This document shows positions 35,122 through 54,808 of a stretch of 64,000 nt of DNA, in pieces; the first letter of the stretch is position 1, and each line of letters begins with the position of its first letter. A program made the translations under genes and the position numbers. The notes below the pieces were generated by a model that saw only the letters and a program-made list of their open reading frames with translations, made no database searches and was not told the DNA's origin. This DNA is from a virus. Lineage: Duplodnaviria; Caudoviricetes. Location of the stretch: positions 32,001 to 96,000 of the IMG/VR virus record IMGVR_UViG_3300021431_000081. One strand, given 5' to 3'.

Positions 35122-38100
35122 TCACGCATACTTATACTTACTCATAGAGTTCTTACCTAATACTGCACCCAGTGTCATATCCTGTACCGCATTCTGGAAG
35201 TTACGATCAGCTACAAGAGCGGACTTGAACTCATCATAATTCTTCACATTAGGAAGTGTGATACTTAACTGAATAGTAGTATTCGGTGAGAGAGTAGTAT
35301 TGGTGGTATTATTGATGACAGGTTGAGATCCGAAAGACTTAGCAAACATATCGGGAATATTCATTTTCGCTAATTTCCAGAGATTATCTGTCATTTCAGC
35401 ATTAAATACCGCATCACCTCTACCAAGAGGAGTAAGGATAGCACCATCAGACTTACGGATAATAGTCTCAAGACCCTTTTCCTGAGTCCAAGCATTCAGA
35501 TCAGTAGGAACTGACTTAATACCTGTGACATAATGCCATCTTGCATGATAAGCATCGGAATTTTCTTTCGCTTTATGATAGGCATCTTGTGCTTCATCAA
35601 ATCTGGTTTTAGCATTTGCAAACTGTACTTCCAATCTGTTTAATTGACGCTCTAACTCTTGTATTTCTCTTTCTTTGTTTTCGTAGTTCTGTTTCGCTTT
35701 TAATGCTTCTTCAGATAATTGTCCTACCCTTGATTGACCTTTATATTTAGTAAATTTACTACGTTCCTCTTGCCGTTCTTTGTTTAACTGAGAAATATTA
35801 CGTTTAGTCTCAGCGATTTGTTCATTTAAAGTATTAAAATTGGAATATGCCTCATCTACTGTTTTCTTTGCTTGTTTAGTTTTACTATCCTTATCAATGG
35901 TATTCATCTTTTTAGATAAATTCTTCACCGTTGTAACAGTAGTATCATCTAAAGCGTCTTTTTCTTCTTGAGACATTCCTTTATACTCTTTAATAATGGA
36001 TCTAACAGCATCGTAATCCTTTGCCTTTAAATCTTTTTCTTTGCCAACATATCCAGAGACTTTTTCTCTAAAAGCTGCTTTTGCCTGTTCTTCAGGCTGA
36101 CGGGCTGCATCATCTATTACAGATTTTACGGCAGCTTCAATACGATTTTGTAAAGAACCGTTTTCTTTTAAAGCACCAACAAGATTATCAGTGATATTTT
36201 TATCTACTTGTTTCAAAGTGTTAACAGTATCTGTTGCGTTACTACTTACACCAAGTGCATCAATTTTATCAGCAAGTAAATCTTGCATCTTTAAAAGAAC
36301 TTTATCACGATTTTTCAGATACCTATCGATCCATTCTTGGAAATTAGCAGACAAATCATCCAACATCTTTTGGGCATCAGATAAGTACTTACTATATTCC
36401 GCATCCCGGAGATCCTGTCTGGCATCCTTAATATCTTTCTGGAGTTTCTGGATCTTGGATACAGACTCCTCAGAGGTATTATTCTGCCAAGCAGCTAACT
36501 GTTTCTCCAGATTGGTAATGTTATTAGCTTTTTCAGTAATCTGCTTCTGATAATCATAGGCTTCTTTCTCGGCGTTCTTTAATTCTTTATACTTACTAAT
36601 TGTATTATTCAGAGCAGTAAGCTGTGCTTCATAACCTTGACGAGCCAAATCAATAACTGCCTGTTTAGCGGCTTCCGCAGCTTCCATAGATCCCCAATAA
36701 GCATCTTGCAATTCATTCATACGATCAATTACTTCTTGATTTGTAGGATCTAGTTCATTTTTAGGATCATTGATCTTTTTGACCAAAAGATTATACTCAT
36801 GTAAATACTGTTGCGCTTCCGCAAGATTCGCTTTATAATCCGTATTCTTCAGATCCAAAGCAGCCATACCATATTGAGTAATATTGCCTTGATTATCTGT
36901 ATCAAAGAACTGTTCATTGGAAATCAGATTATAATAATGATCAATCTCAGAGTTAAGACGCTTCGCACGTTCAATACCATCATCAAATTTCTGCCAGTTA
37001 AGCTTCTCCATAGCCATAGCTTGCTCATGAATATCCAGATTCAATTCTTCAATAGAATCTTCCAATTCAGCTATGATTTGTTTCGCTTCAAACCATTCAT
37101 CAGAACCTACAGTTAAGTCCTTAAGAAGTTTTTGCTGTTTTGCTAATTCTGCATTATATTCAGCAAGCATAGAAACATCTTGACGAATAATGTTCTTATA
37201 ATCATTACGTTGAGCATAATGACCATAAGCCTCTGCTGCATCAATACGTTGCTGTGCTTTTGTTTTACGGCGATCATATTTATAACGATCTTTTTCACCC
37301 TGATTCTGGACATTCTTCATCTTCTGAAGTCTGCGTTGTTCATTCTCTTTTCTAATGGTTTCTTTATTGATTTCTGCTTGTGCTTTGGCCTCACGTCCCT
37401 GTTCAATTGCTTCATTATAACTCAAGCAAGCTTCTAAGAAGGAAGCCTGAATATAACCCGCATTTACCAATTCTGCAATTTCACCAATAGTATCCCCATC
37501 AATAGCCACTTTTGCTTTAATATTCTTTTGAACTTTTGTTAAAGCTTTCTCTACACGAGATTTGACTTTCTTATTTTCATTTGCGTCATATTTCTCTGTA
37601 GTTGCATTACCTTTCTTTAACGTGGTTTTTATTTTTGTGGCGTTCTCTTTCCTAAGCTTTGCAAATTTTTCAACTTTCGCCCGATCATTCTTTTTCTGTG
37701 CTTCCGCAATTTTAATTTGCTCATCAATTAATTTGTTTTGACCATCAGCTGTTGTTTTATTTTCAATTTGTTTATCACGAAGATTGATTTTATTTTGTAA
37801 TCGCTCATTTTTGTTATCATACATTTGAGCGTAATTCTGATAGATCTGTTGAATGTTTTCAGCAACCGCCAACATTTCTTCCATTTTTGCATCTTCGAAA
37901 TTTTGCAACGTCTGATTATAAACAACCAATTGAGCTGCCAATTGAGGATTCTTTTTCTCAATATAGCTAATATCTTTTTCTTTGACGGGTTTATTGTGAT
38001 CCATCGCAGTTTTTATACGTTTTAATACTGTTTGATATTCTTTATGAGACTTTTTAACAGTTCCATTTTTAACCCGTTCTTTTTCTAGTTTAGCTTCTTC

Positions 38101-41100
38101 CTTTGCTAATAAAGGATCAAGTTCAATCGATACTTCTTTTGACGCTTCTTCAAAATCTTGAAGATTCTCTTGAGTGGCTTTTCTATGAATTCTAATTTGC
38201 TTTCTTCTTTGACGATTTTCATAACGAAGTCTGCCGTTAGAGTATTGATAAGCATTATCAGTTCTTGCTTCAAAGTTGCTTTGAGCAATTTGAATGAAGT
38301 TATCAGATAAACTAACTCCCGCATCACGTTGTGCATCATGAACTTCTTTTAATGATTTGGCATATTCACGAGCCTGGGCCTGAAGTTCTTGAAGGGCATT
38401 CTTAGCTTCAATAGCCTTATCAATCCATTCTTGAGTACCTTCAATTACTTTACGGGTATCTTCATCATAGCTATTGATATCAATTTCACCATTAAGAATT
38501 TTATCCCATAATGCATCTTGATTTTCTTTGGTTTTTTTAGGTATGCCCTTTTGGTTCATTCCCTTTTTGAAAACTTCTTCAGCTTGGGCATAGTATTTAT
38601 CATATGCTGCATCTTCATTGCCTATTTGCTCATATATTTTTTCTAAAGCATCTTTGTACTTTTTCTCTGATAAACCATATGCCATACGGTCAAGGAATTC
38701 TTCAGCGAGAGAGGAGAGTTGATCAATCTTAGTTTGAACACGCTCTATGCGGATTTCAATCCAATCAAAAAGTTTATCGAGGTATTTATCAAAGGCATCG
38801 GTCTTATCTTTCTTTTTGGTGGTGGTTGAACGTTTTCCATCGCCGTTACCGCCACTGCCTTTACGCCTTCCACCGTTGCCATTACCGTCACCATCTTTAC
38901 TATCTTTTTTAGGCTTCCGTTTAGTATTTACAGGTTCAATATTAACATCACCATTAATAATAATAGTACCATTATTACCCAATGTCTTATTTAAAGAATC
39001 TAAACCAGTAGAACCACCTGCATAAGCTACTCCACGAGAATTTATAGAACCATATTTAAACAGTTCTTCTGTTTGTTTATGGTTGAAAATAATATCGCCT
39101 TTTTTAACGTCTCTGAATTCAGCACCAGATTCGCCCAGTAAATCCCATTTAGTACCACGTACACGGAGTTCTGGGCCGAGTTCACCTACAAGAGAGGGTT
39201 CTGTTTTCTTAGCACCTATTGTACCTGATGCAAATGCGTTACCTTTAAATAATGAAAAATGAGCATTGCCTTTATATGAACCTGGTCCATCACCATTACC
39301 ATTACTATTTTCACGGTTAATTTTAATTTTAATATTAACAGTACGATTCATTTTATTTAATTCGCTGTTAATATTAGATAAAACTGTTTTGGTTGAATTT
39401 GCTTCACTATGCAAAGATCCTAACACTTTGCTACCACTAACAGAAACACCATTAATACTATTAATAGTATTTTTAGCAGTACGTGCCTCAGAAGAAATAT
39501 TCTTTTCTTTAGAAGCTACCCCTTCAAGATTTCCACTTATAGAACTCAGACTAACATCATTAATTTTTCCAACGTCATTAACACTTGTATTGGCTTCTTC
39601 AGAAATATGTGTTATACCTTCATCAAAATTAGTAGTATCTAAGGTGGCTTTATATTCAATAACTGTTTCTGTAGTTGTAGTTTCTTGTTTTGGTGCTTCT
39701 CCACCATCACCATTCGGACCTTTTTGCTCCCGCTTATGAAGCTTTTTAGTATTGGTATTAACTTGTTGCCCACTTTGGTTTAATGCGGTTGAGGTTGTCA
39801 ATCGCCCCATTGTTTGTTCTATCGTTGTTAAATTAGTGAGAAGTTGGTCAGAACCTAATGTACCTATTGTATAAGAATTAATAGTTGTAATTGCTTCACC
39901 CAAATTTTGTGCTGCAGAAGCAGATTCTTCACTTATAGTCGTATTAAGATCTTTAATTGCTTGTTGAGCCTTTTTCGTATTTAATCTATCAGCTTCTTCT
40001 TGTATTTGCTCAAAGGTTGTTTTTCCGCTTTCCCCTAATGATTTTATTGCTGTAGAAGAAGTAGTAAGATCTATATTATTAAATAGCGCACTTAATTGAC
40101 CATTTGAAAGCTGATTCATTTCTCGTAAATCGCCAACAATACCTTCAATTTGTTCTCGTGCCTTTTGTCCTGCAGTACGATCCCCAGTTGCTTCAGCAAT
40201 TTTATATGCTTGCGCTGCAGCGCTAAGTTCATTAATTTTTGCAGCAAAATCTTTTTCTGCTCCCTCTTCCATACCAGAGATATCAATTACATATGTCTGG
40301 TTGGTCAGGGCAGCTAATTGTGCTTGTGTATTTTTAATTAATTCATTAAGCGCTTCTAAAGACGCCTGACCATTTTCGGTATCAATAAAATCGCCATTTT
40401 CGTCATATAACGCTTTTTTTGCTTCTTCTAACTTATTTAATGCAACGGTAGCATCAACAGCATTATCATACTCAAGATCAAAATCAATTTGATCATCCTT
40501 CTCAAGACCTTTATTTACAGTTTCTTTTAATTCCTCTAACTCTTCAGGAGTCTTAAAACTATCAACTGCAATTTTATATAATTCTATTTGACGGTTAGCA
40601 TCGGCTATTGCGTTAGTGTATTGATTCCATAATTCAGAATTTTCTTCTATCTCTCCACTATTAAGACGCTCATTCATTTCATCAATAGATTTACTAAGCT
40701 CATCTATAGTAGTCGGCGCTCCATCTAAAGGATCAAGAAGATCATAAGTTACTCCTGCATCAAGCATTGATTTCACCAATTCACTCGATACAGAGAATCC
40801 TTCTTTTCCTAATACATTTTGCATATAATCTGATATCGCTGCAGCAATCATTCCTTCGTCTCCAACAGCAAAATTCAAATCACCATTTTCGTCAAAGAAA
40901 CGCTCCATTCCTGCTTGATGTAATGCTTTTTCCGTCATGTCAAGAAAATCATTTACACCTTCGTTATCATTAGTCATGTATTTTTTAATAAAGTCCGCAA
41001 TATTCTTTTTTTGCCCATAGACTTTATCACCATTCATAGACTGACCCGTGATCATTTCCATATATGCAAGGACTTCAGGATCTGCCCAACGTTCATTGTC

Positions 41101-43629
41101 TAATTTACCCTTGATAGTATCCCATCCTCCACGGATGGTATCATACATAGTCGCATCAGATCCCATCTCTTGAGACTGTAACCATTTCTGATAAAGGCTA
41201 TCAGATACTTCAATCTGAGCATTCATTTTTGCCCAAGATGTTAATCTGGTCTGAATTTGACTTTGCTCTTGTGATAAAACACTAAGACGAGTTTTTTCGG
41301 CATCTGTTAATGCTTCACTCTTACTTGTGAGGCTTTCAATTTCTTCTTTATTCTTTTTATATTTAGTGGTTAATGTATCATATTGATCATTTAACTTCTT
41401 ACTAATATCATGTTTTTGAGTATTAATCATTTCCTGCGCAGCTTTTGCATTTAATTGCATGCCATTCGCACCTATAGAAATTGCATCTGCAAAACCTTGA
41501 TATGTTTCAGTTAAAGATTCAAAAGTTTTTTGTGATAAAAAGCCATTCTTGCTTTGTTCTGCCATAGCAGAAGAAAGTGCTGTTGAAGATTCGGCCAATG
41601 TATTGATTGCAGTATTCGTACTATCAGCGAATTCATTCCATTTATCAGCAGCTCTACCTGTAGTTGTTGCTGATACTAATTCAAATTGCTGCATTAAATT
41701 AATTGCGTCTTGAATAAAAGTAGGAGATTGGAAATCTACTAATCCTGCTCGACCAAATACTCTGGCAACATTCATTGCGGATTGTTGGATAGAAGAGTAC
41801 TGATCTTCAGGAATTGTCCAATCAATTTCACTTAATTCTTCAGCACTAATTTCTTTAAGATCCTTTAATGCATCTGTATAATTATCTTTTAATTTTTCTT
41901 TTACTTTATCATTGATAAATTTATCTGGATCAAAAGTCATAATTTCATCGGCCTTTAAAGAGCCAATAATTTTTGACCATGAAGTACCTGCAATATAATG
42001 TGCAATTCGATCATTTTCTGAGCCAGATAACATGCTCATCAATGAAGACTTTCTATTTTTAAATACCTGTTGAGTACTATCAATACCAAAAGCATCAATT
42101 AATTCCTGACGTTTATCTTTTCCAATATGAAGCGCATTCATAGCTGCATCAAGGCGCTGTTTCATAATATCTGCATAATCATTAACATCTATCTTGGATA
42201 AATCAGGAGAGATAAAATCTTTAAGTACTTGAGAAGCCTCGCCTGTAGCATCTGATCGAATAGTATCAACAAATTTTAAATAATCTTCAGCACTAATTAA
42301 TGCTTCTTTTGAAAATTGCTGTAAATATGCAACTCCATCTTGTGTTACTTGACTATCCAAGCTAAGATCGGGCGTAATTTCAGCATATGATTGTTTTAAA
42401 TAATCAACAGCATTTTGATAACTCTCTTGTGCCGATGTTATTTCAGCGTAGTATTGCTTAATTTGATTTTCTAAATCTGTAATAACTTTTGACTTCGATT
42501 CATTCCGATATTTTGCTTCACCCGTAAAGCTATCGTAATCATAAGCTACCTTTACAGTATCGCCCTCTTGTTCTTGAATTTCTTTAATTTGTTGCTTTAA
42601 TTTATCTATTTTTCCTTGATTTTCTGCGGTTTTATCGTCAACCGCTTGCTTTAAAGCAGGTATTCCTGCATTAGAAGAAGGATTCACTAAAGAATCAATA
42701 TTAAAAGAAGTTGCGTCAATTATAGCCCCTTCTTTTGCTTGGGCGAGTTCCCTATATTTATTAATCTGATCTTGAATAATTTCAGTATTTGCGAGAATAG
42801 CATTACCTTCACTATCCCAACCAGTTACTAATTCAGGGAACTGTTCTGCAATTTGTTGACGAATAGCATAATATTCTTCAGATCCTGCTTCAGCTTCTCT
42901 ATATTGATCTAAAAGTTGCTGAAGAGAATTGGCGCTATTATTATATTCATCGTATTCTTGTTTAAGTGTGTCTGTTTTCTCTTTACTGGAATCAATAAGT
43001 TTTTGATTACGTTTAGATACAGCATCAAGTGTATCTGCGTAATTATTATATACCCAAATAGCTGCTCCTACAGTTGCTGCAATACCTGCAAAAATAAGCG
43101 CACCTTTACCGAATAAAGAAAGCTGCGCCCAACCTGCTTTTAACCCATCCCTAAGTTTACCACTTTGAGCGGTTGCTTCTTTCATTGCTTTGGCAACATC
43201 TTTAAATTTTCCTGCAACATGTTGGATTTGTTCTACTCCATCTTCGTCTATAATTTGAATATCTTTACCCTTTGTAAGTCCATCTTGCAAAAAGTCAAAA
43301 ATAGTTGTTTGTTTTTTCGCAGCCTTAAATAAAACACCATAACCACCAAATATTGCTAAAGCTGCTGTTTTTAATAAACCAAATTTATCAACGACTCCCA
43401 TGATCACAGAGCCAAGATCAAGGAAAAAGTTAATAACATCTCTATTTGCTGTTCTTGCCCAGGCTTGTTGCCATTGGTTCTGAAGTTTGGCTAAATGACC
43501 TGAAATAGAATCTTGATATTTTTGTAATTCTTCTTCAGCTGAACCGAATGAATTTTGAGACGAACTATATACATCTCGTAAAAGTTTTCCATTTTGTAAT
43601 ATCGATGCGACAACGTTTGCCCTATTCTT
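35122..43629 (-). CDS. Tape-measure protein, exon 3 (2835 aa, starts KNRANVVASILQN)
   Basis: Continues the conserved TMP core (LAG|KNRAN); hydrophobic segments, long coiled coils, C-terminal GE.GPE/EKGLE motifs. The track's TTG start lies in the intron and its G is the intron's terminal G. Confidence 0.9.
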   Translation of the reverse strand, partial: KNRANVVASILQNGKLLRDVYSSSQNSFGSAEEELQKYQDSISGHLAKLQNQWQQAWARTANRDVINFFLDLGSVIMGVVDKFGLLKTAALAIFGGYGVLFKAAKKQTTIFDFLQDGLTKGKDIQIIDEDGVEQIQHVAGKFKDVAKAMKEATAQSGKLRDGLKAGWAQLSLFGKGALIFAGIAATVGAAIWVYNNYADTLDAVSKRNQKLIDSSKEKTDTLKQEYDEYNNSANSLQQLLDQYREAEAGSEEYYAIRQQIAEQFPELVTGWDSEGNAILANTEIIQDQINKYRELAQAKEGAIIDATSFNIDSLVNPSSNAGIPALKQAVDDKTAENQGKIDKLKQQIKEIQEQEGDTVKVAYDYDSFTGEAKYRNESKSKVITDLENQIKQYYAEITSAQESYQNAVDYLKQSYAEITPDLSLDSQVTQDGVAYLQQFSKEALISAEDYLKFVDTIRSDATGEASQVLKDFISPDLSKIDVNDYADIMKQRLDAAMNALHIGKDKRQELIDAFGIDSTQQVFKNRKSSLMSMLSGSENDRIAHYIAGTSWSKIIGSLKADEIMTFDPDKFINDKVKEKLKDNYTDALKDLKEISAEELSEIDWTIPEDQYSSIQQSAMNVARVFGRAGLVDFQSPTFIQDAINLMQQFELVSATTTGRAADKWNEFADSTNTAINTLAESSTALSSAMAEQSKNGFLSQKTFESLTETYQGFADAISIGANGMQLNAKAAQEMINTQKHDISKKLNDQYDTLTTKYKKNKEEIESLTSKSEALTDAEKTRLSVLSQEQSQIQTRLTSWAKMNAQIEVSDSLYQKWLQSQEMGSDATMYDTIRGGWDTIKGKLDNERWADPEVLAYMEMITGQSMNGDKVYGQKKNIADFIKKYMTNDNEGVNDFLDMTEKALHQAGMERFFDENGDLNFAVGDEGMIAAAISDYMQNVLGKEGFSVSSELVKSMLDAGVTYDLLDPLDGAPTTIDELSKSIDEMNERLNSGEIEENSELWNQYTNAIADANRQIELYKIAVDSFKTPEELEELKETVNKGLEKDDQIDFDLEYDNAVDATVALNKLEEAKKALYDENGDFIDTENGQASLEALNELIKNTQAQLAALTNQTYVIDISGMEEGAEKDFAAKINELSAAAQAYKIAEATGDRTAGQKAREQIEGIVGDLREMNQLSNGQLSALFNNIDLTTSSTAIKSLGESGKTTFEQIQEEADRLNTKKAQQAIKDLNTTISEESASAAQNLGEAITTINSYTIGTLGSDQLLTNLTTIEQTMGRLTTSTALNQSGQQVNTNTKKLHKREQKGPNGDGGEAPKQETTTTETVIEYKATLDTTNFDEGITHISEEANTSVNDVGKINDVSLSSISGNLEGVASKEKNISSEARTAKNTINSINGVSVSGSKVLGSLHSEANSTKTVLSNINSELNKMNRTVNIKIKINRENSNGNGDGPGSYKGNAHFSLFKGNAFASGTIGAKKTEPSLVGELGPELRVRGTKWDLLGESGAEFRDVKKGDIIFNHKQTEELFKYGSINSRGVAYAGGSTGLDSLNKTLGNNGTIIINGDVNIEPVNTKRKPKKDSKDGDGNGNGGRRKGSGGNGDGKRSTTTKKKDKTDAFDKYLDKLFDWIEIRIERVQTKIDQLSSLAEEFLDRMAYGLSEKKYKDALEKIYEQIGNEDAAYDKYYAQAEEVFKKGMNQKGIPKKTKENQDALWDKILNGEIDINSYDEDTRKVIEGTQEWIDKAIEAKNALQELQAQAREYAKSLKEVHDAQRDAGVSLSDNFIQIAQSNFEARTDNAYQYSNGRLRYENRQRRKQIRIHRKATQENLQDFEEASKEVSIELDPLLAKEEAKLEKERVKNGTVKKSHKEYQTVLKRIKTAMDHNKPVKEKDISYIEKKNPQLAAQLVVYNQTLQNFEDAKMEEMLAVAENIQQIYQNYAQMYDNKNERLQNKINLRDKQIENKTTADGQNKLIDEQIKIAEAQKKNDRAKVEKFAKLRKENATKIKTTLKKGNATTEKYDANENKKVKSRVEKALTKVQKNIKAKVAIDGDTIGEIAELVNAGYIQASFLEACLSYNEAIEQGREAKAQAEINKETIRKENEQRRLQKMKNVQNQGEKDRYKYDRRKTKAQQRIDAAEAYGHYAQRNDYKNIIRQDVSMLAEYNAELAKQQKLLKDLTVGSDEWFEAKQIIAELEDSIEELNLDIHEQAMAMEKLNWQKFDDGIERAKRLNSEIDHYYNLISNEQFFDTDNQGNITQYGMAALDLKNTDYKANLAEAQQYLHEYNLLVKKINDPKNELDPTNQEVIDRMNELQDAYWGSMEAAEAAKQAVIDLARQGYEAQLTALNNTISKYKELKNAEKEAYDYQKQITEKANNITNLEKQLAAWQNNTSEESVSKIQKLQKDIKDARQDLRDAEYSKYLSDAQKMLDDLSANFQEWIDRYLKNRDKVLLKMQDLLADKIDALGVSSNATDTVNTLKQVDKNITDNLVGALKENGSLQNRIEAAVKSVIDDAARQPEEQAKAAFREKVSGYVGKEKDLKAKDYDAVRSIIKEYKGMSQEEKDALDDTTVTTVKNLSKKMNTIDKDSKTKQAKKTVDEAYSNFNTLNEQIAETKRNISQLNKERQEERSKFTKYKGQSRVGQLSEEALKAKQNYENKEREIQELERQLNRLEVQFANAKTRFDEAQDAYHKAKENSDAYHARWHYVTGIKSVPTDLNAWTQEKGLETIIRKSDGAILTPLGRGDAVFNAEMTDNLWKLAKMNIPDMFAKSFGSQPVINNTTNTTLSPNTTIQLSITLPNVKNYDEFKSALVADRNFQNAVQDMTLGAVLGKNSMSKYKYA

Positions 43630-44125
43630 CAAATTATATTTACATATATCGTAACTATATGCTTTTTTATTTTATGCTGTGCATAAAATAAAAAACTCAT
43701 ACTTTCGTATGAGATTAGACTATTTCTTATCCATCACTTTGATGGTCATACTTTTTCGATTACAGGTATTTAACCAACGCCATTAACTTGCGTCCTACTC
43801 CTATTGTTAAAGATATTCAGGATTTCCACCTTTATTCTCAAGTCTTTAACCCGTTCGGGGATAGTCGTTGAACGTTCACCCTCGACTTAACTAACATATG
43901 GTCTATGTGTGACGTTAGGGTGCTTCGCTGCATGAACAGTAATTATTCTTCATAATAGAAGAGCAGTACTTAGGCTTTTAACCATATACCATCCTTACGT
44001 TTTTTCTACTTTCGTACCATCATAATGTGGTTTCCCCATTATTGTGGTGTAAGGCTTTATACATTACCTGCAATTAAATATGATCTATATTGCATATCAC
44101 TATACAACCCGGTAAGATTACGTTT
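43630..44125 (-). ncRNA. Group I intron 2 in the tape-measure gene (496 nt, no homing-endonuclease ORF)
   Basis: Core elements UAAUUGCAGGUAA (P), UUCAUGCAGC (Q), GUUCAACGACUAU (R), AAGAAAUAGUC (S); P3 UCAUAUUU/AAAGUAUGA; P7 GACUA/UAGUC; P9 CUCAUAC-GAAA-GUAUGAG; terminal G at 43630; IGS UCUUACCGG complementary to the joined exons CCGGU|AAGA; removal restores the frame. Confidence 0.93.
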
Positions 44126-44506
44126 ACCGGCTAACACTTCGAGCAAACCGTTCGCACGGTTCGTGCCATATTGTTTATCTGTTGCAATTATTTCTTCATA
44201 GACATCTGCAATATCCTGAAGAATCTCATAGGTGCTTCTGAAATTACCGTTTTCATCAAGTATATCTACACCTTTAAAGCCATTACTAGCTACAGCAGTG
44301 TAATCTTTAATTATTTGTTGAGATTTCGCTGATGTTTGGACTACGAAGTCATCTACGTCTTCTCCAAGATCAGCAAGTTCGGCCTTTGCTTCCTCTGTGC
44401 CAGTTATTCTCAAAGCAACCGTTCTCATTGCATTGCCGACCTTTTTAGGGTCCTGCACAACTGCATTCCCGGCAGTAATTAAAGCAATTGCTTCATCAAT
44501 GTCATT
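44126..44506 (-). CDS. Tape-measure protein, exon 2 (381 nt, 127 aa, NDIDEAIALITAGN...LLEVLAG)
   Basis: Open frame extends 16 codons upstream of the track's GTG; the sequence is the conserved TP901-type TMP core (IALITAGN.VVQDP.KVGNA.RT..LRI; G.FRSTYEIL.DIA). Confidence 0.92.
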
Positions 44507-44947
44507 CGATTTATTATGAGTTTAAAACTCACTTTTTTATTATGCAATGCATAATAAAAACTGCATCTTTCGATGCAGTCCAGACTATTTCTTCATCTTC
44601 AGCTTTACCTGTTAAGAGTACCCTTTTCGATTTAAGAGATTTTCACTCACATATTAAATATATGCCCTACGATTATTGATTTAAGTATTCAGGATTTCCA
44701 CCTTTATTCTCTTGCTTAAATCCCGACATGGATCTAGTCGTTGAACGTTCACCCTCGACTCAAGCACCGTATGTTCTACGGAATACGTTAGGGCGCTTCG
44801 CTGCATGAACAGCCAATCCTTACGTTTTAAAACCATCATAATATAGTTTCCTTATTATTGTGGTGTAAGGCTCTAAGGCATTACCTGCAATTAAGAATAT
44901 TCATATAATACATTTCTGTATTATCAGGCAATTAGACATTTCTTTTT
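44507..44947 (-). ncRNA. Group I intron 1 in the tape-measure gene (441 nt, no ORF)
   Basis: P1 CAGGU/GCCUG with U.G at the splice site; P10 AUU/AAU; P2 AUAAUACA-GAAA-UGUAUUAU; P3 UAUUCUU/AAGGGUA; P/Q/R/S elements; P7 GACUA/UAGUC; extra stems between P7 and P3' (IA-like); P9 GACUGCAUC-GAAA-GAUGCAGUU; terminal G at 44507. Confidence 0.95.
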
Positions 44948-47900
44948 ACCTGCTGTTTTTAATGAACTTGCTGACAACTGTAACGCTGTTGCAAGGCCAT
45001 CAGTACTAATTGAAAAGTTATTACCTACATTGTTTAACTTATCAATAATATCCATTTTGCCAAGATTATCATAAGCTTGGCTCATAGCTACTAAACTTTC
45101 AGTAGCTTCATCAATACTTTCAAATTCTGATACATTAAGTAAAACGGAAGCATCTTTTGCAGATTCTTTTGCGTCATCAAGCGTCTCTCCAAGCCTCATC
45201 CAGTCAGCAGTACTTTGCTGAATAACTAATCCAGTAGTACCTGCCTGATTTGCTATATCATAACTTTCAGTTTGAAATTCTTTAAGACGGGAGAGTGGTT
45301 CATCAGATACTTTTGCCATTTCGGTTAAAGCATCATCTAATTGATGAATAATTTCAAAACCCTCACGAGCATAACGAATAAAATCTTGAATAGAAACATA
45401 TGATAAGAAATAAGCACCTAAATCTTTAAATTTTCTTACTAATTTTGTTGAAAAAGTATCTCCTACTTTTCCTGCCTTATTTAATTCTTGTTCAAAACTA
45501 TTAACTTGTGCTATCGCATGCTCTAAAGAAGCTTGATTTACATTTTTTAAGCCATCGCTAATTTCTTGTAAATATTGTTTTCCCTCTTCCCCCATCTTTG
45601 GGTTATTCGTTATTAAATTACTAATTCTTTTTTGTAAAGCGGTAGTATTTTTTTCACTAGCCTTAATATTCTTTTTGTCACCTAATTCATTTTCTAAGTT
45701 TTGTACTTGATGAACTAATTCACCAATCTCTTTTATTTCTTGAGGATTAGTAATATCAATACCGTTCTTTAATTTGTTTTGAAGAGTCGTAATAGTTTGA
45801 TCCAGTTCATCTAATTGAGTTTTATATTGATCAGTATTTATAATTTTATTATTATTAAATAACTCATTAAATGTTTTTTTCTTTCCAATAGTTTTGTCAA
45901 CAATATCAGATACTTTTCCCGCATACCTTTCAGAAGCAGATTCTATCGCTTTTTCCATTTGAGAGTCTAAAATGATATCTGTAGATTTTCTGTCATTTAA
46001 TAATGTTTGTCTTTTATTGTATTTTTCTTGTATTTTACTAATTATATTATCAAAAGATTCATCAGCATTAACTTTTAAACTTTTTTCTGCTAAAGAAGCA
46101 CTTTCCTTAATTAGTTGTTGTTCATCTTTATACGATTGTTTTTTATCCTTTTCTTCTTTTCGTTCTTTCTCTCGTTTTTTTTTACTTTCTTCTTTTTCTT
46201 CTCTTTCAATTTCCTTATCTAATTCTTTTTCTTCTTTTCTTCTTTGCTTTTCCTCTGCCGCTTTCTTTTTCGCAACTTCTGCCTTTAATTCTGCATAATG
46301 TTTTTCTTGATCATCTTGTTTTTTCGATTCTTTTAAAGTGTTTAATTGCTCTTCTTTAGATTGACGTATTTTTTCTAATGCTTCTTTTTCATTATCAGTT
46401 AAATTTAAGATTTGTTTGTTTAATTCATCTTCAACTTCTTGTTCTTCATACATACGTTGTGTTGCAGTTGTGTTATCCTTTGCAGGATTTGTCACATTTC
46501 TTTCTAGCAAAGAATATTTTTTATTCAAAGCCTTTTGTGCTAATTCAAAACTGTTATTTACAGCATCCTCAATTCCAGATACAACGGTTCTTTGTACTGA
46601 CTGACTAATCGGATCATATTTATAATCTGTTCGCCATTTTCTTTTATTACCATGTTCATCAGTGTCTTCATGATCAACGTGATATTTTGAAATGTTGCCA
46701 AACCTGTCTTGGGTATAATATTGATTTTTTCTACTATACTGATCAAAATTACGTTCATCAGCAGCAATAGCTTGTAAAATTGCTTTATGACCTATTTCAC
46801 TAATACGTTCTTCATCAGTTAAATCTTTAGAGTCTCTTTTTTTCTTATTAGTTTCTTTTTCTTCTTCAGCCTTTTTAGTATTTTCAATTTGTTGTTGTAT
46901 TTCCATACTTTTTACTAAAGAAGAAAAATCAATATTACTTAAAGTAGTAAAATCTACATTTAATTGATTTAATAAATCTGTTATTGCAACAAGTTCCTCT
47001 CGAAGCTGCTCAATAAAAGTCACTTCATTATAAATTACTTCTTCAACAGTACTATTTTCTTTTTCAAAAGCTTCGGTTTTATCATTAACGGCTCCAGTTA
47101 CTTTTATTATTGCATCAAATAAACTACTTATTTGTGTAGATTCATTAGAAAAATCTAGTGCTTCACCAGTACTATCGGTTATTTTTTTTATTTGATTAAT
47201 TGCTTCAGTTAAAGATGGAATTATCTTATTTAATGTTTCCGCAAAATCAGAAAATTGATTATCTTGCATCTCTTTTCCTGAAAATACTTGTTTTATCGTA
47301 TCCAATAAATTATTAATTGGTGTTGCTTCTTTTTCCAATGTTTTTATTTCATTTCTATAATTTTTAAATATTTCGCCAAACTGAGATTCCCAAGCACTAA
47401 TATCAACACCCGCTCCTTTAAGTAGCTGTTGTATTATAGAAATTCCATTTTTAAAATAATCAATTGTATTTTGTAAACTTTTTCCGGGAGACTGTTCATT
47501 GTGCGCTATATATTCATTAAACAAATCTACATTAGAAGAAACAATGTTACCTTTAAAACGACTTTCAACAATTTCACCTTTTTCATTATATATATCTCTA
47601 TATAAATAACGTTCTAAAGAATTATAAGCTTCTTCAATTTGAGGAACGAATCTTCTTTTTATTTCTCCTTCTTTTTGAGCCTGCACAACAGAATTATTCC
47701 CTTTAAAAATTGATTTAAAATCACCTAATTCAGCAATTTTTTCATGTAAAGTAGTTAAGGTTTCATTCAAACCGTCAAAGCCTTTAGAAAAATCAATATT
47801 TTTTATATCATTTGCTAAAGTTTTTATTTCGCCTAAGTTCTCTTTTATGACGTTAAAAGATCCAAAAGTATCTGTTGACGCTAAATATCCTATACCTACT

Positions 47901-49159
47901 TCAATTTTATCTAATGTATCAATTAATTCTGTAAAAGGGGTCTTAATATCTAAATGGCTTAAAGCTTCTAATTCAGTCGTAAGTTTTTGAACTAACGCAA
48001 TTAAAACTCCAAACGCTTCAGCATAATCACCACTTATCTTACTAGGATCAAAATTCATTACAGCTTTATCTAATAATTCTTGTATATAATCAACTTGATT
48101 TGCATATTGCTGATAACTATCGAAAGCGTTTTCATATAATATCTGTTCTTGTTTTACTTCATTTGAATCGATACCATATTGTTCAGATTTGTTTGCTGCT
48201 CTTTCTGAACGCCACTCTGCAGAAGACAAATAATCATCTCGTATCTCTTTTAATCGTTTTAATTCTTCTTGTAATTTTTGTATATCATCTAACTCATCAA
48301 AATCTAAGCCCCAATATGAATCACGATCCGCTTGTTCACGTAACTTCCTTTTTTCATCGGCAAGTTTTTTAATTTCTTCTCTAGTTTTTGCAATTATTTT
48401 ATCTGGCGTTGAAGAAGTATTGCCAGAACCATCACCTGGTCCTGTACCATTACCATCACCATTACCATTGCCTGATCCATTTCCATTATTTGAAGATCCT
48501 TTATTGGTCTTTTGAATATTATCCAATGCATCTTTTAAAGAAAGCGCTTCAATTTTAGCTTTATTTAAATCCTCAGTTAATCCTTTGAAACCTGCTTGCT
48601 CTAAAGCTTCTTGGGGTATTTGTTTTAATAAGCCAAATAATTCTTTAAAAGCATCAACTGTTTGTGGTAAACCGCCTTTTGAATTTTTGTCCAATCCTTC
48701 ATATATTTCTCTAATACGAGTAACAAATTCAGCCATTTCAGGATTAATTTTTTGAATATCTCCACCCAAGGCTTCAAAGGCATTAGCTCTTTTCCATAAT
48801 TCAGATACATCTTTAGAACTATCTTTAAAGAAACCCTTATCATCAACTTCCCCATTTTTCCATTTTGATAATAGATCTTGATTTTGAACTAATTTATTCC
48901 ATTGTTCAATTAATGAATTTTGTGCATTACCTATTGATTGAAAATATTTTTTCGGATTTTTTTGATTGTATTGCTTTATACCTGACAATTCCTTATTAAT
49001 ATTTTCAACGTCTTTATTACCTTCTATTTTAAATTCAATTTTATGACTACCTTCTACTGAGCCAATCGAAGACGCTAAACTTTTTACAGCTTCTGTCAAG
49101 GCACGAATTTCATTACTAGCACCAGATCCACCTTTATTACCTGATATTTTTGTAGCCAT
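44948..49159 (-). CDS. Tape-measure protein, exon 1 (1404 aa, ends ...SASSLKTAG)
   Basis: The end of the exon carries TMP core motifs (LDDALTEMAKVS, STADW.RLG, IIDKLN.VGNNFSIST.GLA.AL..SAS.L..AG); AAGGAGG RBS; spliced product is 1404+127+2835 = 4366 aa. Confidence 0.9.
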
Positions 49160-49180
49160 TCAACGCCTCCTTTCTTTATT

Positions 49181-49786: not shown

Positions 49787-49810
49787 AATATATTGTCTCC
49801 TTAAAATATA

Positions 49811-50242
49811 TTACAGTAATTTTGAATTCAATAATAAATCATTTAACCGCATAGAAAACAATGCGTCAAATGCTTGTTTGTCTTCAGGCAACTTTTCCCA
49901 AATTTTATCTATAATTTTATATTGATTTAAAAAATCAAAAAACAAATCATTATCTTTGTTAATATCAATACTAAATTGAGTATATAAATTTATAACTGTT
50001 AAAATATAATATTTATATTCATTCGGTTTATTATATAATATTTTCCCTTCGGGTTCATAATGTGCCTTTCGAATTATATTATCTATACTATTTATTTTTT
50101 CATTATATGGAATATAAGTAGATTCCGATAATACTAATTTTGAAATATAATTATCTTTAATATTATCTGATTTAACGCATGAATATTCATTCATAAAAGC
50201 ATTAGTATCATTTAATGATTGATTCATTATCTTATCCTCCAT
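49811..50242 (-). CDS. Hypothetical protein, paralog of 50242..50802
   Basis: Shares YIPY.EK...I...AH and I..LYT motifs with its neighbour; start overlaps the neighbour's stop (TAATG). Confidence 0.6.
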   Translation of the reverse strand: MEDKIMNQSLNDTNAFMNEYSCVKSDNIKDNYISKLVLSESTYIPYNEKINSIDNIIRKAHYEPEGKILYNKPNEYKYYILTVINLYTQFSIDINKDNDLFFDFLNQYKIIDKIWEKLPEDKQAFDALFSMRLNDLLLNSKLL

Positions 50243-50802
50243 TATTCTAATTGTATTCCGTTCACCATTTCCATAATTTCAGGCATTACACCACTAACGG
50301 CATCTAATACTTGCTCCGTTCCTTTGGCAATTCCAATCATAATAGCATCAATAATTTCCTGAGATTGCTTTTGTGAGTTGATATCATCAAAGAAATCTCG
50401 TTTAATGCAATAAAAAACTTTTTTGAATTCTTTAATATCATCTGATGCCAAATCTTCAATCATTTTAAAATCCTTTATTGCACCCATAATTAAATCATAT
50501 TCTTTTGTTGCATCTTCAGTATGCAAATCTAAATTCGTATATAATTCCATAATTGTCCATTGAAATAAGAACAACTCTTTGGATTGATTATGTTTATATT
50601 TATCGTTTTTAAAATGAGCTGTTTGCAATATATAAGTAGCATAGGTCATTTTTTCTGCATAAGGGATATATGCATTTTTATCAATAATTTCACTCATGAT
50701 ACATGCTTTCCTATCATCAGCACTTTCTGCCTCATCATATTTTTTAAGAAAATCAGCAACACTGATTTTTTCAATATTTTCATTATTCATAATTTTACTC
50801 AT
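50242..50802 (-). CDS. Hypothetical protein (possible tail assembly chaperone)
   Basis: 186 aa, GGAGG RBS, between the major tail and TMP genes. Confidence 0.55.
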   Translation of the reverse strand: MSKIMNNENIEKISVADFLKKYDEAESADDRKACIMSEIIDKNAYIPYAEKMTYATYILQTAHFKNDKYKHNQSKELFLFQWTIMELYTNLDLHTEDATKEYDLIMGAIKDFKMIEDLASDDIKEFKKVFYCIKRDFFDDINSQKQSQEIIDAIMIGIAKGTEQVLDAVSGVMPEIMEMVNGIQLE

Positions 50803-50814
50803 ATCTCGATCCTC

Positions 50815-51381
50815 CTAGTTTTCCTTATATTTAGCACAAACTCCCTCGACTATTTCATCCTGGATCCGGCCTTCCATTGCCTTACGAAGAATTGAACAGT
50901 TTCTATCATACCGTTTACAGGTTTTGCATTTATCTTCAAAATAATCAGCGGAAGCTTGATTATCAAACACTCCTACAAAATCTACAGGATAAATAGTCAA
51001 TTCAATATGTGGATTTTTATTATCGTACATAACCTTTAAAATGCGATTACAAACCATATTATCATCTAACCAAACCACACCAGAATCTGTAATAGCATCA
51101 GAAATGCACTTATCATAATTAGCGCAATCCATATCGGTCCTTGGAAAATAATAAACCGCATCAACATAATAATGCTGATACGGATTTTCACTTTTTATCC
51201 AACCTTGTTTTTTCGCCTCTTGTTTTACATATTCTGTAAATCGTTTCTGGAAGTCTTTCGCTTCTTTTGTCTTATAGGACATTGCCATAGGTTTTCCATT
51301 TTTATACATTACACGATATGCAAGATAGTGATTCACTGAAATGAATTCATTTACGGTGAGTTTTAATACTTGCTTTTCCAT
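50815..51381 (-). CDS. rusA: RusA-like Holliday junction resolvase with C-terminal Cys cluster
   Basis: SVNHY, YFPR..MD.ANY.K...DAI..SGVVW.DD, D.KNP.IEL.I motifs; C..C.R...C...C tail. Confidence 0.8.
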   Translation of the reverse strand: MEKQVLKLTVNEFISVNHYLAYRVMYKNGKPMAMSYKTKEAKDFQKRFTEYVKQEAKKQGWIKSENPYQHYYVDAVYYFPRTDMDCANYDKCISDAITDSGVVWLDDNMVCNRILKVMYDNKNPHIELTIYPVDFVGVFDNQASADYFEDKCKTCKRYDRNCSILRKAMEGRIQDEIVEGVCAKYKEN

Positions 51382-51394
51382 AACTCACCACCAA

Positions 51395-51796
51395 TCAATA
51401 AATATATCCTTCAAGAGTAAATACAGATTCTGTATTCGAACTATCTGGATCAAGATTGGCATATACATCAAACGATATCATGGTCATTTCACATGGAAAA
51501 TCCCAAACATAAGACTGTTCATGCCAATCATTGATAGGAATGAACCGTCCTTTCTCTCCAATTATCTTTATATTAATAATTTTACCTTTGGCATTTAATA
51601 ACATTGGTAAAAAACCTATAGATTTAAATTCAATTGTATTAATATCCCGTCTTTGATAATTGATAGTAAAATTATTTACTTCACTTAAAACTATAGATTT
51701 ACCATTTTCATAATTTAATATTACTTTTACACTGGTATCCCCAGTAATAAATGTTTGATTTTTTATAGGCTCAAATGTCATATTTTTCTCCTTCAT
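51395..51796 (-). CDS. Hypothetical protein
   Basis: 133-aa ORF; a second ATG after AAGGAG (MTFEP) is a possible start. Confidence 0.5.
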   Translation of the reverse strand: MKEKNMTFEPIKNQTFITGDTSVKVILNYENGKSIVLSEVNNFTINYQRRDINTIEFKSIGFLPMLLNAKGKIINIKIIGEKGRFIPINDWHEQSYVWDFPCEMTMISFDVYANLDPDSSNTESVFTLEGYIY

Positions 51797-51843
51797 ATTC
51801 CGATACTGTAGTTCTAACCCTACTATTCAATTTAAAAAAGCCA

Positions 51844-51866
51844 TGATATAATCCCCATTAAGGAGG
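51844..51866 (+). promoter_or_regulatory. Extended -10 promoter and RBS of the only plus-strand gene
   Basis: TGaTATAAT at 51844-51852, then AAGGAGG at 51860-51866, 6 nt before the ATG at 51873. Confidence 0.65.
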
Positions 51867-51872
51867 CATATC

Positions 51873-52082
51873 ATGACAAAACAACAACTAATTGATATAA
51901 TTTCAGAGGCTAATAATTTAGCTTCGTTACACTTTATCGAATTATATAAACAAAATGCTGATTTTATATTGAGCAAAGAAGATAAATACGCTCAATATTT
52001 TGCGTTAGGTTTTACTACATTTAATGCAGTTCAATTAATACTATTCTTTACTTTATATCAAATTTGCGAAATAGAAGAGTAG
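51873..52082 (+). CDS. Small moron-like membrane protein (69 aa)
   Basis: Own promoter and strong RBS; fills a gap in the minus-strand operon; C-terminal hydrophobic segment YFALGFTTFNAVQLILFFTLYQIC. Confidence 0.7.
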   Translation: MTKQQLIDIISEANNLASLHFIELYKQNADFILSKEDKYAQYFALGFTTFNAVQLILFFTLYQICEIEE

Positions 52083-52334
52083 TCATACCTCTTTGACCAG
52101 GTCGTAAGAGATCTGAACAGGTATAACCACTAATTCAATATCATCATTTGTTACATGCTTATATTCATCTAGTAACATTTGCGCTATACTTCGATCTTCG
52201 GTGTATAGCGCTTTATTTATGCGTTTATAAAAACAATATTTATACTCACCAGGTTGTTTATACAAATACATGGTAGGAGATGAAACCGTTGCAATTATAA
52301 ATTTTATTTCTTTTAACGTAGGTATTGTATCCAT
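52083..52334 (-). CDS. Hypothetical protein
   Basis: 83-aa ORF with AAGGA RBS, tightly packed in the operon. Confidence 0.6.
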   Translation of the reverse strand: MDTIPTLKEIKFIIATVSSPTMYLYKQPGEYKYCFYKRINKALYTEDRSIAQMLLDEYKHVTNDDIELVVIPVQISYDLVKEV

Positions 52335-52348
52335 AATCCTTATTCTCC

Positions 52349-52579
52349 TTATAGCAGCTTACGCTCATTCCATAATTGTGACACCTCTTTTGTGTCTTCT
52401 CTATAAAAAACGTATACCAATATATCATTTCCTTCGCAGTCTGAACTAGCATATAAATCTATAGGGTATACATTATGTTTTATATATTTTTTTGCCTGAA
52501 TAGGATTTATGATTCTAACTACTTCACCTAATTCATAATCGCATCCAGTAATATTAGTCTTAATTAGCATCCTATTCAC
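52349..52579 (-). CDS. Hypothetical protein
   Basis: VRI.NP.Q...YIK..V.P.D.Y...LVYVF..E.T pattern; tightly packed in the operon. Confidence 0.6.
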   Translation of the reverse strand: MNRMLIKTNITGCDYELGEVVRIINPIQAKKYIKHNVYPIDLYASSDCEGNDILVYVFYREDTKEVSQLWNERKLL

Positions 52580-52585
52580 CTTCTT

Positions 52586-53155
52586 TCAAGGAACCAGTTC
52601 ATTACCAAAACTGTCCCAACCCAGTCGTTCACGTCTTGCATACATTTCTAATTTGTTTAAGTTTGGATATAGATTCTCTATCATCTCATAGCTACATTCA
52701 GGTTTCTGGCTGTGATGTTTTGGTAATTCATGGAATACCGAATGATATTTCCCTCTATACTCTTTAGCTACTGGAATGAATTTACCCTTATAAGCATATA
52801 ATAGATATTCGTGACCAAAACGTATTGTAAATGCAGCGGGAATACCGTTAATCTTATCCCAGATCATACGAGAATGAATTTTATATCCCAAATCCTTTAA
52901 AATTTGTTCTGCTTCAAATAAATATTTATCTATAGTCCATAAAAACATCACACAGTCACCCCCCCCTATACAATTTTCAGAGACATATTTTAAATGCTTC
53001 TTAATATCATCCAGTGAGAGAGTAGGGTAATCCAGATCTGTTCCGCTTGAATTTTTTCGGACTGCTTTTTTGCCACCTTTTGTTTGTTTCCAAGGTGGGT
53101 CTGCCAGTATTAAATTATATTTACCATCAATTTGATGAATGTCCGTATATATCAT
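52586..53155 (-). CDS. MT-A70 family adenine-N6 methyltransferase
   Basis: LILADPPW catalytic motif, YPTL, MFLW, IWDK, HEYLL, HSQKP, KLEMYAR..R.GWD.FGNE. Confidence 0.9.
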   Translation of the reverse strand: MIYTDIHQIDGKYNLILADPPWKQTKGGKKAVRKNSSGTDLDYPTLSLDDIKKHLKYVSENCIGGGDCVMFLWTIDKYLFEAEQILKDLGYKIHSRMIWDKINGIPAAFTIRFGHEYLLYAYKGKFIPVAKEYRGKYHSVFHELPKHHSQKPECSYEMIENLYPNLNKLEMYARRERLGWDSFGNELVP

Positions 53156-53183
53156 TCCTTGTTCTCCTTTCCCTTTTTAGGGC

Positions 53184-53230
53184 AAAAAAGGGGAGCATAA
53201 CCCCGCACAGTGTGCAAAGCTATACTCCCC
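53184..53230 (-). terminator. 19-bp terminator hairpin with U6 upstream of the methyltransferase
   Basis: GGGGAGUAUAGCUUUGCAC-ACU-GUGCGGGGUUAUGCUCCCC-UUUUUU. Confidence 0.8.
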
Positions 53231-53282
53231 TATCAGAATATTTAAAATAAAAAATCACTGTGCAAAATACTATAATCTCTGA

Positions 53283-53603
53283 TTATTCAGTCTGCTCAGA
53301 GTACGCAGTTTTTTTCTTCTTTTTAGTAAACTTAGGATTTTCGATCTTCATAATTTCATCGATTCTTTCTGCAATCACTTCATTATATTTATCAGTTCTT
53401 GTAAGATCATATTCTTTAAGCTGTTCACGAGCCTGATCAATAGTAATTGCTTTTCCTATATAGTTCGAAGTAATTTTATAAATCATTCTACAATTATTAG
53501 AATCAAAAGTAGTCATCCAAGCAGGTTTATCCTTATCTTCACCACAACCCGGACAATAACTATACATTTTTCCGCAAATTGCACATTTTCTATTATTTGC
53601 CAT
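53283..53603 (-). CDS. Zn-finger-like hypothetical protein
   Basis: C..CGK.Y.YCP.C then W...FDS.NC; GGAGG RBS. Confidence 0.65.
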   Translation of the reverse strand: MANNRKCAICGKMYSYCPGCGEDKDKPAWMTTFDSNNCRMIYKITSNYIGKAITIDQAREQLKEYDLTRTDKYNEVIAERIDEIMKIENPKFTKKKKKTAYSEQTE

Positions 53604-53661
53604 GTTAATAATTCCTCCTTAATTCATAGATTCCTCTATGCCTTTATAGAGGAATAGGATT

Positions 53662-53697
53662 AAATAAGGGTGGACAGGTATGAGCCATCCACCCCTT
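53662..53697 (-). terminator. Hairpin after the major tail gene
   Basis: GGGUGGAUGG...CUGUCCACCC then UUAUUU; a second hairpin follows at about 53628-53655. Confidence 0.6.
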
Positions 53698-53711
53698 GTA
53701 TAGACTAATTA

Positions 53712-54324
53712 TTAGTCTTCATCATCATCATCAGCCCAAGTGATGTAGTACAGCAGTTTTTCAGAACCGCAGTAAGAGGACTGCAGAGAACCGCTGAAGT
53801 CTACGGTAGCATCCGTAGTCAGAGACAGAGAAATCTCAGGGCTGATTTGGAAGGACGGGAAGGTAATATACATTGCCTTGAGCGTATTGACAGAACACGG
53901 ATCGATAGCGAGCGCTTTTACAGTCAATTTAATAGTTCCAGGGAATTTGTCAGACTCATTAACGATCTTTGCACCAGTATTAACGGTACGATCATATTTA
54001 ACAATATACTGTTCAATACCAGTAGTATTAGGAGGTGTAAGCGTTGTTACACCATCGACAGTGGTAATATTATAAGCAGTTAAGTCATAAGTCTGTCCCA
54101 TACCACCAGAGGTATTCATATCAGAAACCTGAATAGTACCTTCAATAAAACCAGTGATATCAAGGGTTTCACCCTTCTTCACAACAGCAATACGAGGCAT
54201 TACAATAGTATGAGATGTGGTAGCCATCTCAGCATCCGTACCAGAAGCAGTAGCCAGAGCGGAGAAATTAATCATTGCTTCTGTAGCGGTAACTTCGCCA
54301 GTTTTTGCCTGCCAAAAGCGTTTT
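53712..54324 (-). CDS. Major tail (tube) protein, exon 2
   Basis: Begins with the last base of the split Val codon, then KRFWQAKTGEVTATEAMINFSALA...; in frame with the track ORF 53712..54275. Confidence 0.8.
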
Positions 54325-54623
54325 CAATTTCTGTTACTTCTATGACCTATTATGAATATAAAAATGCAAATAATAGGCGAGTAAGTATTTCTACTTACTT
54401 CTCACATTTCATTTTTTTTAGATTATAGTGTGAGTTCAGACTGTATATTCATCCTTATAAAAATAAGGAGAGCCACTTCAATATATATGTCACCATATAT
54501 ATCCTGCAGTCGTTACGGATTCTCTCATATAAAGAGTCTTTCCTCGGTCTTGTCCATCTCTGGAGTTTAACCGATATAGTGGCTTTTTAATTATGTATTA
54601 CTACATAACCTGGCAAAACTTAT
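54325..54623 (-). ncRNA. Group I intron in the major tail protein gene (299 nt, no ORF)
   Basis: IGS GUUUUGCCAG pairs with the joined exons CUGGU|AAAAC (U.G at the splice site); P2 UUAUGUA-GUAA-UACAUAA; P3 AGCCAC/GUGGCU; P4 UCGG/CCGA; R CCGUAACGACUG and S AAUAUACAGUC (P7 GACUG/CAGUC); P8 UCCUUAU/AUAAGGA; terminal G at 54325; removal restores the frame. Confidence 0.93.
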
Positions 54624-54808
54624 ACCAGAGTGCCTTGGGCATCAACAGCGTCTTTAGATTCAGCAGTAATATCAACAGTAAAATTATTTAACTGAGACAT
54701 CAGCAGTACAGGTACATCAGTATCTACACCATTAACTTTCTTTGTCATTTCACCGTAGGCGAATTGTACTCTGTCCACGATGATGTCACCAAGCATGAAC
54801 TGTGCCAT
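54624..54808 (-). CDS. Major tail (tube) protein, exon 1 (MAQFMLGDIIVDRV...DAQGTL-V)
   Basis: GAAAGGAG RBS before the ATG at 54808; spliced product 265 aa; position between head-tail genes and TMP. Confidence 0.8.

Follow-up and report, generated by a model that had tools for sequence, protein, structure and literature searches.

A 64,000-nucleotide (nt) stretch of viral DNA, called the window below, corresponds to bases 32001-96000 of the 155,845-bp IMG/VR virus record IMGVR_UViG_3300021431_000081, which CheckV rates as 100% complete. The virus is an uncultured 156-kb SPbeta-like phage, and all genes of the region described here lie on the minus strand. Among them are the genes for the tail tube protein and the tape measure protein (TMP), each present as a single copy in the genome and each interrupted by inserts that we identify as group I introns. 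Two of these, I1 and I2, divide the TMP gene into three exons, while the third, I3, divides the tube gene into two (Table 1). Boundaries were set by reading the sequence by eye and by computing the exon joins.

Removal of I1 and I2 from the TMP gene leaves a single frame of 13,101 nt that encodes 4,366 amino acids (aa) and contains one stop codon, at its end. The phrog_4211 tape measure profile matches the three exons in colinear order, and the PF10145 (PhageMin_Tail) domain is split exactly by I1, with either piece by itself falling below the cut-off of 33.2 bits. Alignment of the spliced protein with 14 uninterrupted homologues is gapless across both junctions, and the sequence LAGKNR[AS]N is almost invariant. 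At 4,366 aa (35122-49159, minus strand) this TMP is very long for a siphophage. Tail length usually follows a rule of about 1.5 Å per TMP residue, which implies a predicted tail of roughly 0.65 µm.

The spliced tail tube protein comprises 265 aa. Its residues 1-90, which span the I3 junction (...DAQGTLVKRFWQAKTGEV...), are identical to those of an intron-less database protein, P0001, and the part encoded by exon 2 is 95% identical to the same protein. Most of 63 tube homologues are 255-275 aa long and carry precomputed matches to PF27173 (YomU_Tube). A local Pfam profile search of the tube protein gave no match, the copy searched being without PF27173. An AlphaFold model of P0001 (predicted local distance difference test score, pLDDT, 83; predicted template-modelling score, pTM, 0.63) resembles solved siphophage tail tubes with E values from 2.5e-13 to 1e-9, the best being 8xkn_B (E 2.5e-13, template-modelling scores 0.62/0.67), with YSD1, Chi and JBD30 also matched. 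The virion module is SPbeta-like, as the neighbors of the tube gene belong to the YomW, YonB and YonD families.

Table 1. Exons and introns of the tape measure and tail tube genes (window coordinates). ORF, open reading frame; RBS, ribosome-binding site; P0001, intron-less database homologue of the tube protein.
Feature	Coordinates	Strand	Description
Tape measure gene exon 1	44948..49159	-	1,404 codons; ATG at 49159; phrog_4211 486-746 and PF10145 8-111 end at the exon boundary
Intron I1, group I	44507..44947	-	441 nt, phase 0, ORF-less
Tape measure gene exon 2	44126..44506	-	127 codons; PF10145 114-188 and phrog_4211 749-832 resume where exon 1 stops
Intron I2, group I	43630..44125	-	496 nt, phase 0, ORF-less
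Tape measure gene exon 3	35122..43629	-	2,835 codons and stop; phrog_4211 841-1581
Tail tube gene exon 1	54624..54808	-	ATG at 54808; RBS AAGGAG 54815-54820; 61 codons and 2 nt; 98% identity to P0001 residues 1-63
Intron I3, group I	54325..54623	-	299 nt, phase 2, ORF-less
Tail tube gene exon 2	53712..54324	-	1 nt, 203 codons and stop; phrog_2729 profile starts at position 56

The Rfam covariance model for group I introns (RF00028, Intron_gpI) matches all three inserts. The match to I1 (44561-44957) scores 49.7 bits (E 4.3e-10), that to I2 (43696-44126) scores 32.4 bits (E 6.5e-5) and that to I3 (54417-54633) scores 31.5 bits, with an E value of 3.1e-6 for a search of 551 nt. Each match spans the whole model (positions 1-253), and a scan of the entire genome with RF00028 returned I1, I2, I3 and no others. 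The scores are probably depressed by the large insertions that the alignments show within the P5 region and from P7 to P3′. Minimum free energies were compared with those of 100 dinucleotide shuffles per intron, giving z values of -5.75 (I1), -5.07 (I2) and -5.05 (I3), and none of the 100 shuffles was as good in any case. None of the introns has a frame above 56 codons, the longest frame has no Pfam match, and no endonuclease ORF was found inside I1, I2 or I3. They are three endonuclease-less group I introns.

Comparative evidence for the fold comes from two intron families. Seven I3-type members were aligned: the window copy, two copies from relatives at the same tube site (L085 and L087), and four copies from tape measure genes (two in L074 and one each in L050 and L072). 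The RNAalifold consensus of this alignment includes P2, P4, P5, P6, P7, an extra hairpin after P7, P8, P9 and P9.1. In this consensus 94.2% of cells are paired, as compared with 30-45% after shifting of the 3′ partners by 1-3 columns, and compensatory changes occur in 41 of 55 pairs, a level reached by none of 500 shuffles, although the structure was derived from the very alignment that was scored. P3, which forms a pseudoknot with P7 that RNAalifold cannot draw, was examined by eye and also covaries (AGCCAC/GUGGCU, CCUAGC/GCUAGG, GAUAAC/GUUAUC, AGUAGC/GCUACU). Both helices of the P3/P7 pseudoknot, which belongs to the conserved P3-P8 catalytic core, thus covary among I3-type introns. The I1/I2 family has compensatory changes at 37 of its 90 predicted pairs. 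Members of both families have additional helices between P7 and P3′, an arrangement that we take to be that of phage subgroup IA introns. At the nucleotide level, the 3′ core of I2 is 74.6% identical over 111 nt to the lysK intron region of Staphylococcus phage K, with 119 staphylococcal phage records matched in all.

The splice sites conform to the group I pattern. In I1, I2, I3 and nine further junctions read in relatives, the 5′ exon ends in U and the intron ends in G, and splicing of the three window introns would create the junctions TAG|NDIDEAIAL (I1), LAG|KNRANVV (I2) and GTLV|KRFWQAK (I3). The I1 guide AAUUGCCUG (about 44925-44933) pairs with exon CAGGU, the splice site being marked by a U.G pair, and forms P10 with the 3′ exon sequence AAU. 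Likewise, the I2 guide UCUUACCGG (about 44109-44117) pairs with exon CCGGU, here with a U-A pair at the splice site, and with AAGA of the 3′ exon. The I3 guide GUUUUGCCAG (54610-54619) can pair along its full 10 nt with the ligated exons CUGGU|AAAAC, forming P1 with a U.G pair as well as P10. Accordingly P10 measures 3, 4 and 5 bp in I1, I2 and I3, and the splice-site pairings are CAGGU/GCCUG (I1) and CUGGU/GCCAG (I3), both with U.G, and CCGGU/ACCGG (I2), with U-A. Other P1 registers of I2 that would give U.G were considered and rejected, as none retains both the protein junction and the terminal G. Across the families the guides follow the insertion site (CUGGU/GCCAG, UAGGU/GCCUA, UGGGU/GCCCA, GGAU/GUCC, CAGGU/GCCUG). 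The core of both TMP introns contains the 10-mer GCAGGUAAUG (about 44876-44885 and 44064-44073, minus strand), which is the same as the ligated exon 1-exon 2 junction of I1.

Translation that continued past the 5′ splice sites would soon terminate. The number of in-frame codons before a stop is zero for I3, seven for I1 and 22 for I2, and there are stops in all frames, such that unspliced transcripts would yield products ending after 62 aa (tube) or 1,411 aa (TMP). As both genes are single copy and both stop early without splicing, full-length tube protein and TMP could come only from spliced RNA, and tail assembly would depend on splicing of I1-I3.

Much of this was anticipated by an earlier note, made from the letters of this DNA, which had described three ORF-less introns with group I cores in a major tail gene and a tape measure gene. 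Full-length RF00028 matches, folding z values of about -5 and the lack of an endonuclease ORF agree with that description. The in-frame junctions it listed, TAG|NDIDEAIAL, LAG|KNRANVV and GTL(V)|KRFWQAK, are correct as judged by the computed boundaries and aligned homologues. Its label for the tail gene is borne out by PF27173 on homologues and the fold match to tail tubes, and its tape measure label by the colinear profile over three exons. The expectation that gene callers would fragment these genes is confirmed by database ORFs of 187 aa, and the dependence of tail assembly on splicing, which the note had also asserted, follows by inference from the single-copy genes and early stops.

Intron-less alleles, which the earlier note had suggested seeking in related phages, are present for both genes. 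For the tube gene, one is found in a close relative, locus L088, which shares 97.7% identity with the window across the 6 kb that lie upstream of the tube intron site. Its tube gene is uninterrupted, and as the locus ends before the I1 and I2 sites, the comparison bears on I3. Over their first 173 nt the two tube genes do not differ, and then seven differences are clustered between -11 and +10 of the insertion site (window 54314-54635, L088:10170-10200). Five of these, just downstream of the junction, keep the encoded VKRFW (UAAGAGAUUC versus AAAACGCUUU) yet destroy P10 and the guide match. Further downstream the identity is about 82-90%, and the tube intron site looks like a boundary of recombination or conversion. 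Introns are likewise absent from most of the 63 tube homologues.

Two further observations come from L088 and L086. L088 carries a free-standing GIY-YIG/NUMOD1 endonuclease gene (L088:3388-4185) between a YonD-like gene and the next gene that is missing from the window (about 60689-60696), and identity between the two genomes shifts from 92.8% to 97.7% across it. In locus L086, an unrelated-looking insert of about 270 nt (1182-1451) occupies the exact I3 tube site (UUGGU|...|GAAACG), so that different introns are found at one site.

For the TMP gene, 80 related loci were taken from IMG/VR, and 44 of them run through both window junctions without a break. In the remaining 36, breaks fall in one and the same region of roughly 200 codons, at about eight positions that follow residues 375, 400 (window only), 413, 419, about 425, 436, 495 and 527 of the query. 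By blastn, the inserts of relatives are homologous to I1/I2 or to I3. Many of them contain ORFs of 312-561 aa that match NUMOD1/I-HmuI-like, DUF4379, DUF723 or DUF2726, and on the basis of these matches the products are predicted to be homing-endonuclease-like proteins. In two loci (L066 and L069) the exact I2 site is occupied by an I1/I2-type intron that contains a 312-aa ORF and has the normal U.G pair. When 11 related loci (63 kb) were scanned with Rfam, no match at E <= 0.001 was returned despite their blastn homology to I1/I2 or I3. This blank is likely due to ORF insertions of 1-2 kb combined with speed filters, I3 itself having surfaced only when 551 nt were searched, and is not evidence against introns there. 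Between I1 and I2 the identity is 70%, whereas an intron in another relative (L007) reaches 75-76% with each of them. A recent local duplication of I1 to give I2 is not supported, since both are closer to the L007 intron than to each other.

Several relatives show additional arrangements. In L074 (2381-3000), and equally in L075-L079, two I3-family introns of 268 and 301 nt flank a micro-exon of 51 nt that encodes VNSVAAGLKTVSLRIVG. Some 45 codons upstream, the same locus has a third insert, which is about 1.7 kb long and contains a 409-aa ORF, giving three introns in about 65 TMP codons. Locus L089 is the cultured gut Thomasclavelia phage TR-TP1 (PQ571309.1 28535-30044), whose TMP is annotated as gp29 (TMP), gp30 ('HNH endonuclease', DUF2726-like) and gp31 (hypothetical). 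The gp31 gene is preceded by 175 nt that share 73.8% identity with the 3′ half of I3, and the TR-TP1 TMP gene looks to hold an I3-family intron that escaped annotation and contains an endonuclease ORF, in a phage with a tractable host. A 176-kb human faecal phage record (MT835469.1) contains two I1/I2-type cores (6119-6573 and 7979-8378 of locus L001 in that record), 1.9 kb apart, in a TMP homologue of about 30% identity. Because this distant homologue has two cores, TMP introns appear to reach beyond close relatives.

The tail module of the window has other features of note. Genes for a RusA-like resolvase (50815-51381) and an MT-A70 DNA methyltransferase (52586-53155), both on the minus strand, are located between the tube gene and the TMP gene, and the methyltransferase region has no nucleotide match in the close relative L088. 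A near-perfect palindromic hairpin of 59 nt (35012-35071) lies ~50 nt downstream of the TMP stop codon and is probably a bidirectional terminator. Its matches to a miRNA model, on both strands, were dismissed as chance.

The explanation that we favor, and regard as highly probable, is that I1-I3 are endonuclease-less self-splicing introns of group I within the single tube and tape measure genes, and that they are selfish hitch-hikers rather than a device serving the phage. After late transcription each intron would fold, and its guide would form P1 with the terminal 5 nt of the 5′ exon and P10 with the first 3-5 nt of the 3′ exon. Free guanosine would then attack after the terminal U of the 5′ exon, and the exons would be ligated after the terminal G of the intron, yielding mRNAs for the 265-aa tube protein and the 4,366-aa TMP. 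The fold, guides and junctions are shown by the sequence, and the chemistry of splicing we infer from membership of the family. The two families, I1/I2 type and I3 type, would circulate among the late genes of this phage lineage, with the window copies being hitch-hikers that persist by splicing well enough. Because the L088 tube gene and 44 of the 80 TMP loci are uninterrupted, the introns seem to be dispensable, with the patchy distribution of selfish elements.

Several points weigh against this explanation. The group I covariance-model search that the earlier note had proposed gave significant matches for all three introns, but none reaches the curated gathering score of 50 bits, and a default Rfam scan is blank. 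The gathering score is a curation threshold, however, and not a biological feature, and the E values remain significant. Second, the I2 5′ splice site has a Watson-Crick U-A pair in place of the U.G wobble, which at group I cleavage sites is near-universal although not strictly defining. This substitution may slow cleavage; few TMP copies are needed per virion. The U-A variant seems to be tolerated, because a homologous intron at another site in L007-L009 has the same pair. Third, it is the in-frame, homology-exact junctions that suggest splicing of I1-I3 in this uncultured phage. Finally, the patchy distribution is what points to purely selfish elements, and a secondary effect on expression may coexist with such a lifestyle.

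A regulatory role is the first alternative to be considered. GTP, Mg2+ or translation state could set the extent of splicing, and thereby gate or time the output of tube protein and TMP, or, as a variant, in-frame skipping of exon 2 could generate TMP isoforms. Both components that determine tail length do pass through ribozyme steps and both are encoded by single-copy genes, and the U-A splice site of I2 could make TMP splicing rate-limiting. Moreover, phage introns have been discussed as 'molecular switches', and exon skipping has been reported in Staphylococcus phage Twort orf142 and in a Bastillevirinae polymerase gene (PMC11878797). However, close relatives manage without the introns, intron positions vary from phage to phage over about eight sites, which is a poor fit to a conserved regulatory design, and many copies in relatives carry endonuclease ORFs, which are a mark of mobility. 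Exon 2 encodes the conserved second half of PF10145, and therefore skipping would remove a conserved domain segment. We found no positive evidence for the GTP-sensing or timing checkpoint put forward in the earlier note, and no new mechanism or regulatory role is shown by our data. We consider this alternative improbable.

It is also very unlikely that one or more of the introns, above all I2, are splice-dead, and that the window derives from a crippled genome with a broken tape measure. The U-A pair of I2 would be compatible with such decay, as would the Rfam scores of I2 and I3, which are well under the gathering score. Nevertheless, the 13.1-kb TMP gene is one open frame after intron removal, with conserved residues flanking each junction, the core helices and guides are intact and folding is significant. 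In addition, an independent homologue inserted elsewhere has retained the U-A variant, and the genome is complete according to CheckV. As for inteins, programmed frameshifts, separate small genes or group II introns, these have a negligible chance of accounting for what gene callers see as separate ORFs, since the inserts have stops in all frames and a longest frame of 56 codons without a Pfam match, the gaps of 299-496 nt are too long for frameshifts, the exon pieces are colinear fragments of one profile, and no RNA family other than the group I model matches the inserts significantly.

If I1-I3 are the selfish group I introns we favor, a separate matter is how the two families moved between the tube gene and about eight TMP positions. 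All four I1/I2-type sites follow GC(A/C)GGU, and I3-type copies occur in both tube and TMP genes. One possibility is guide-directed reverse splicing into short GGU|A-type sites in place of endonuclease homing. We offer this idea tentatively and find it rather doubtful. Should it hold, the phage lineage would constitute a natural record of intron transposition driven by reverse splicing.

Introns in virion genes have precedents. Prophages of the Bacillus cereus group carry group I introns at three TMP sites (TMP-IVS1/2/3) and a 'tube' intron, several of them lacking endonuclease genes, with similar introns found at more than one site and a single site found to hold unlike introns (Tourasse and Kolsto 2008, PMC2504315). 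The window and its relatives share with these prophages this mixing of introns and sites, the presence of several introns at different TMP sites plus one in the tail tube gene, the absence of endonuclease genes from some copies, guides adapted to each site, and stop codons soon after the 5′ splice site. Unlike the lambda01-like B. cereus prophages, the present case is an uncultured 156-kb SPbeta-like phage with a 4,366-aa TMP, the introns being likened by description, and introns are denser across its lineage (36 of 80 loci, with about eight sites in 200 codons). The implication in the earlier note that late-gene introns are rare was therefore overstated, as TMP and tube introns are already on record (PMC2504315, PMC11878797).

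Phage Twort orf142, stated to be the tail tube gene, holds three ORF-less self-splicing group I introns that undergo exon skipping (PMC11878797). Both systems place ORF-less group I introns in the tail tube gene of a Firmicutes phage, making a highly expressed late gene dependent on splicing. In Twort there are three tube introns with proven splicing and exon skipping, whereas here one tube and two TMP introns are known from sequence. With the lysK (endolysin) intron of phage K and other kayviruses, I2 shares nucleotide similarity in its 3′ core and an IA-like layout with helices between P7 and P3′, although the host gene there encodes a lysin and the similarity is confined to the conserved core.

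A further precedent is provided by Cluster J mycobacteriophages, which have spliced introns in capsid and tail genes (Pope et al. 2013, PMC3706429). These too are virion-gene introns that were recognized via intron-less relatives; the 265-bp BAKA intron lacks an endonuclease gene, and exons end in U and introns in G. They differ in residing in high-GC actinophages, in being of tentative intron type, and in having splicing confirmed by reverse-transcription PCR, while splicing in the window phage is predicted.

Introns in tape measure and tail tube genes are thus already published, and what is new here is their presence in an SPbeta-like phage lineage and the unusually dense hot spot. For annotation, the consequence is that the tube protein and the 4,366-aa TMP of this phage, along with those of many relatives including TR-TP1, are reported as fragments, and recognition of the introns restores the genes. 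The hot spot itself, in which two families, some copies with endonuclease genes and others lacking them, break 36 of 80 loci at about eight sites, provides comparative material on how introns move and how their guides re-adapt.

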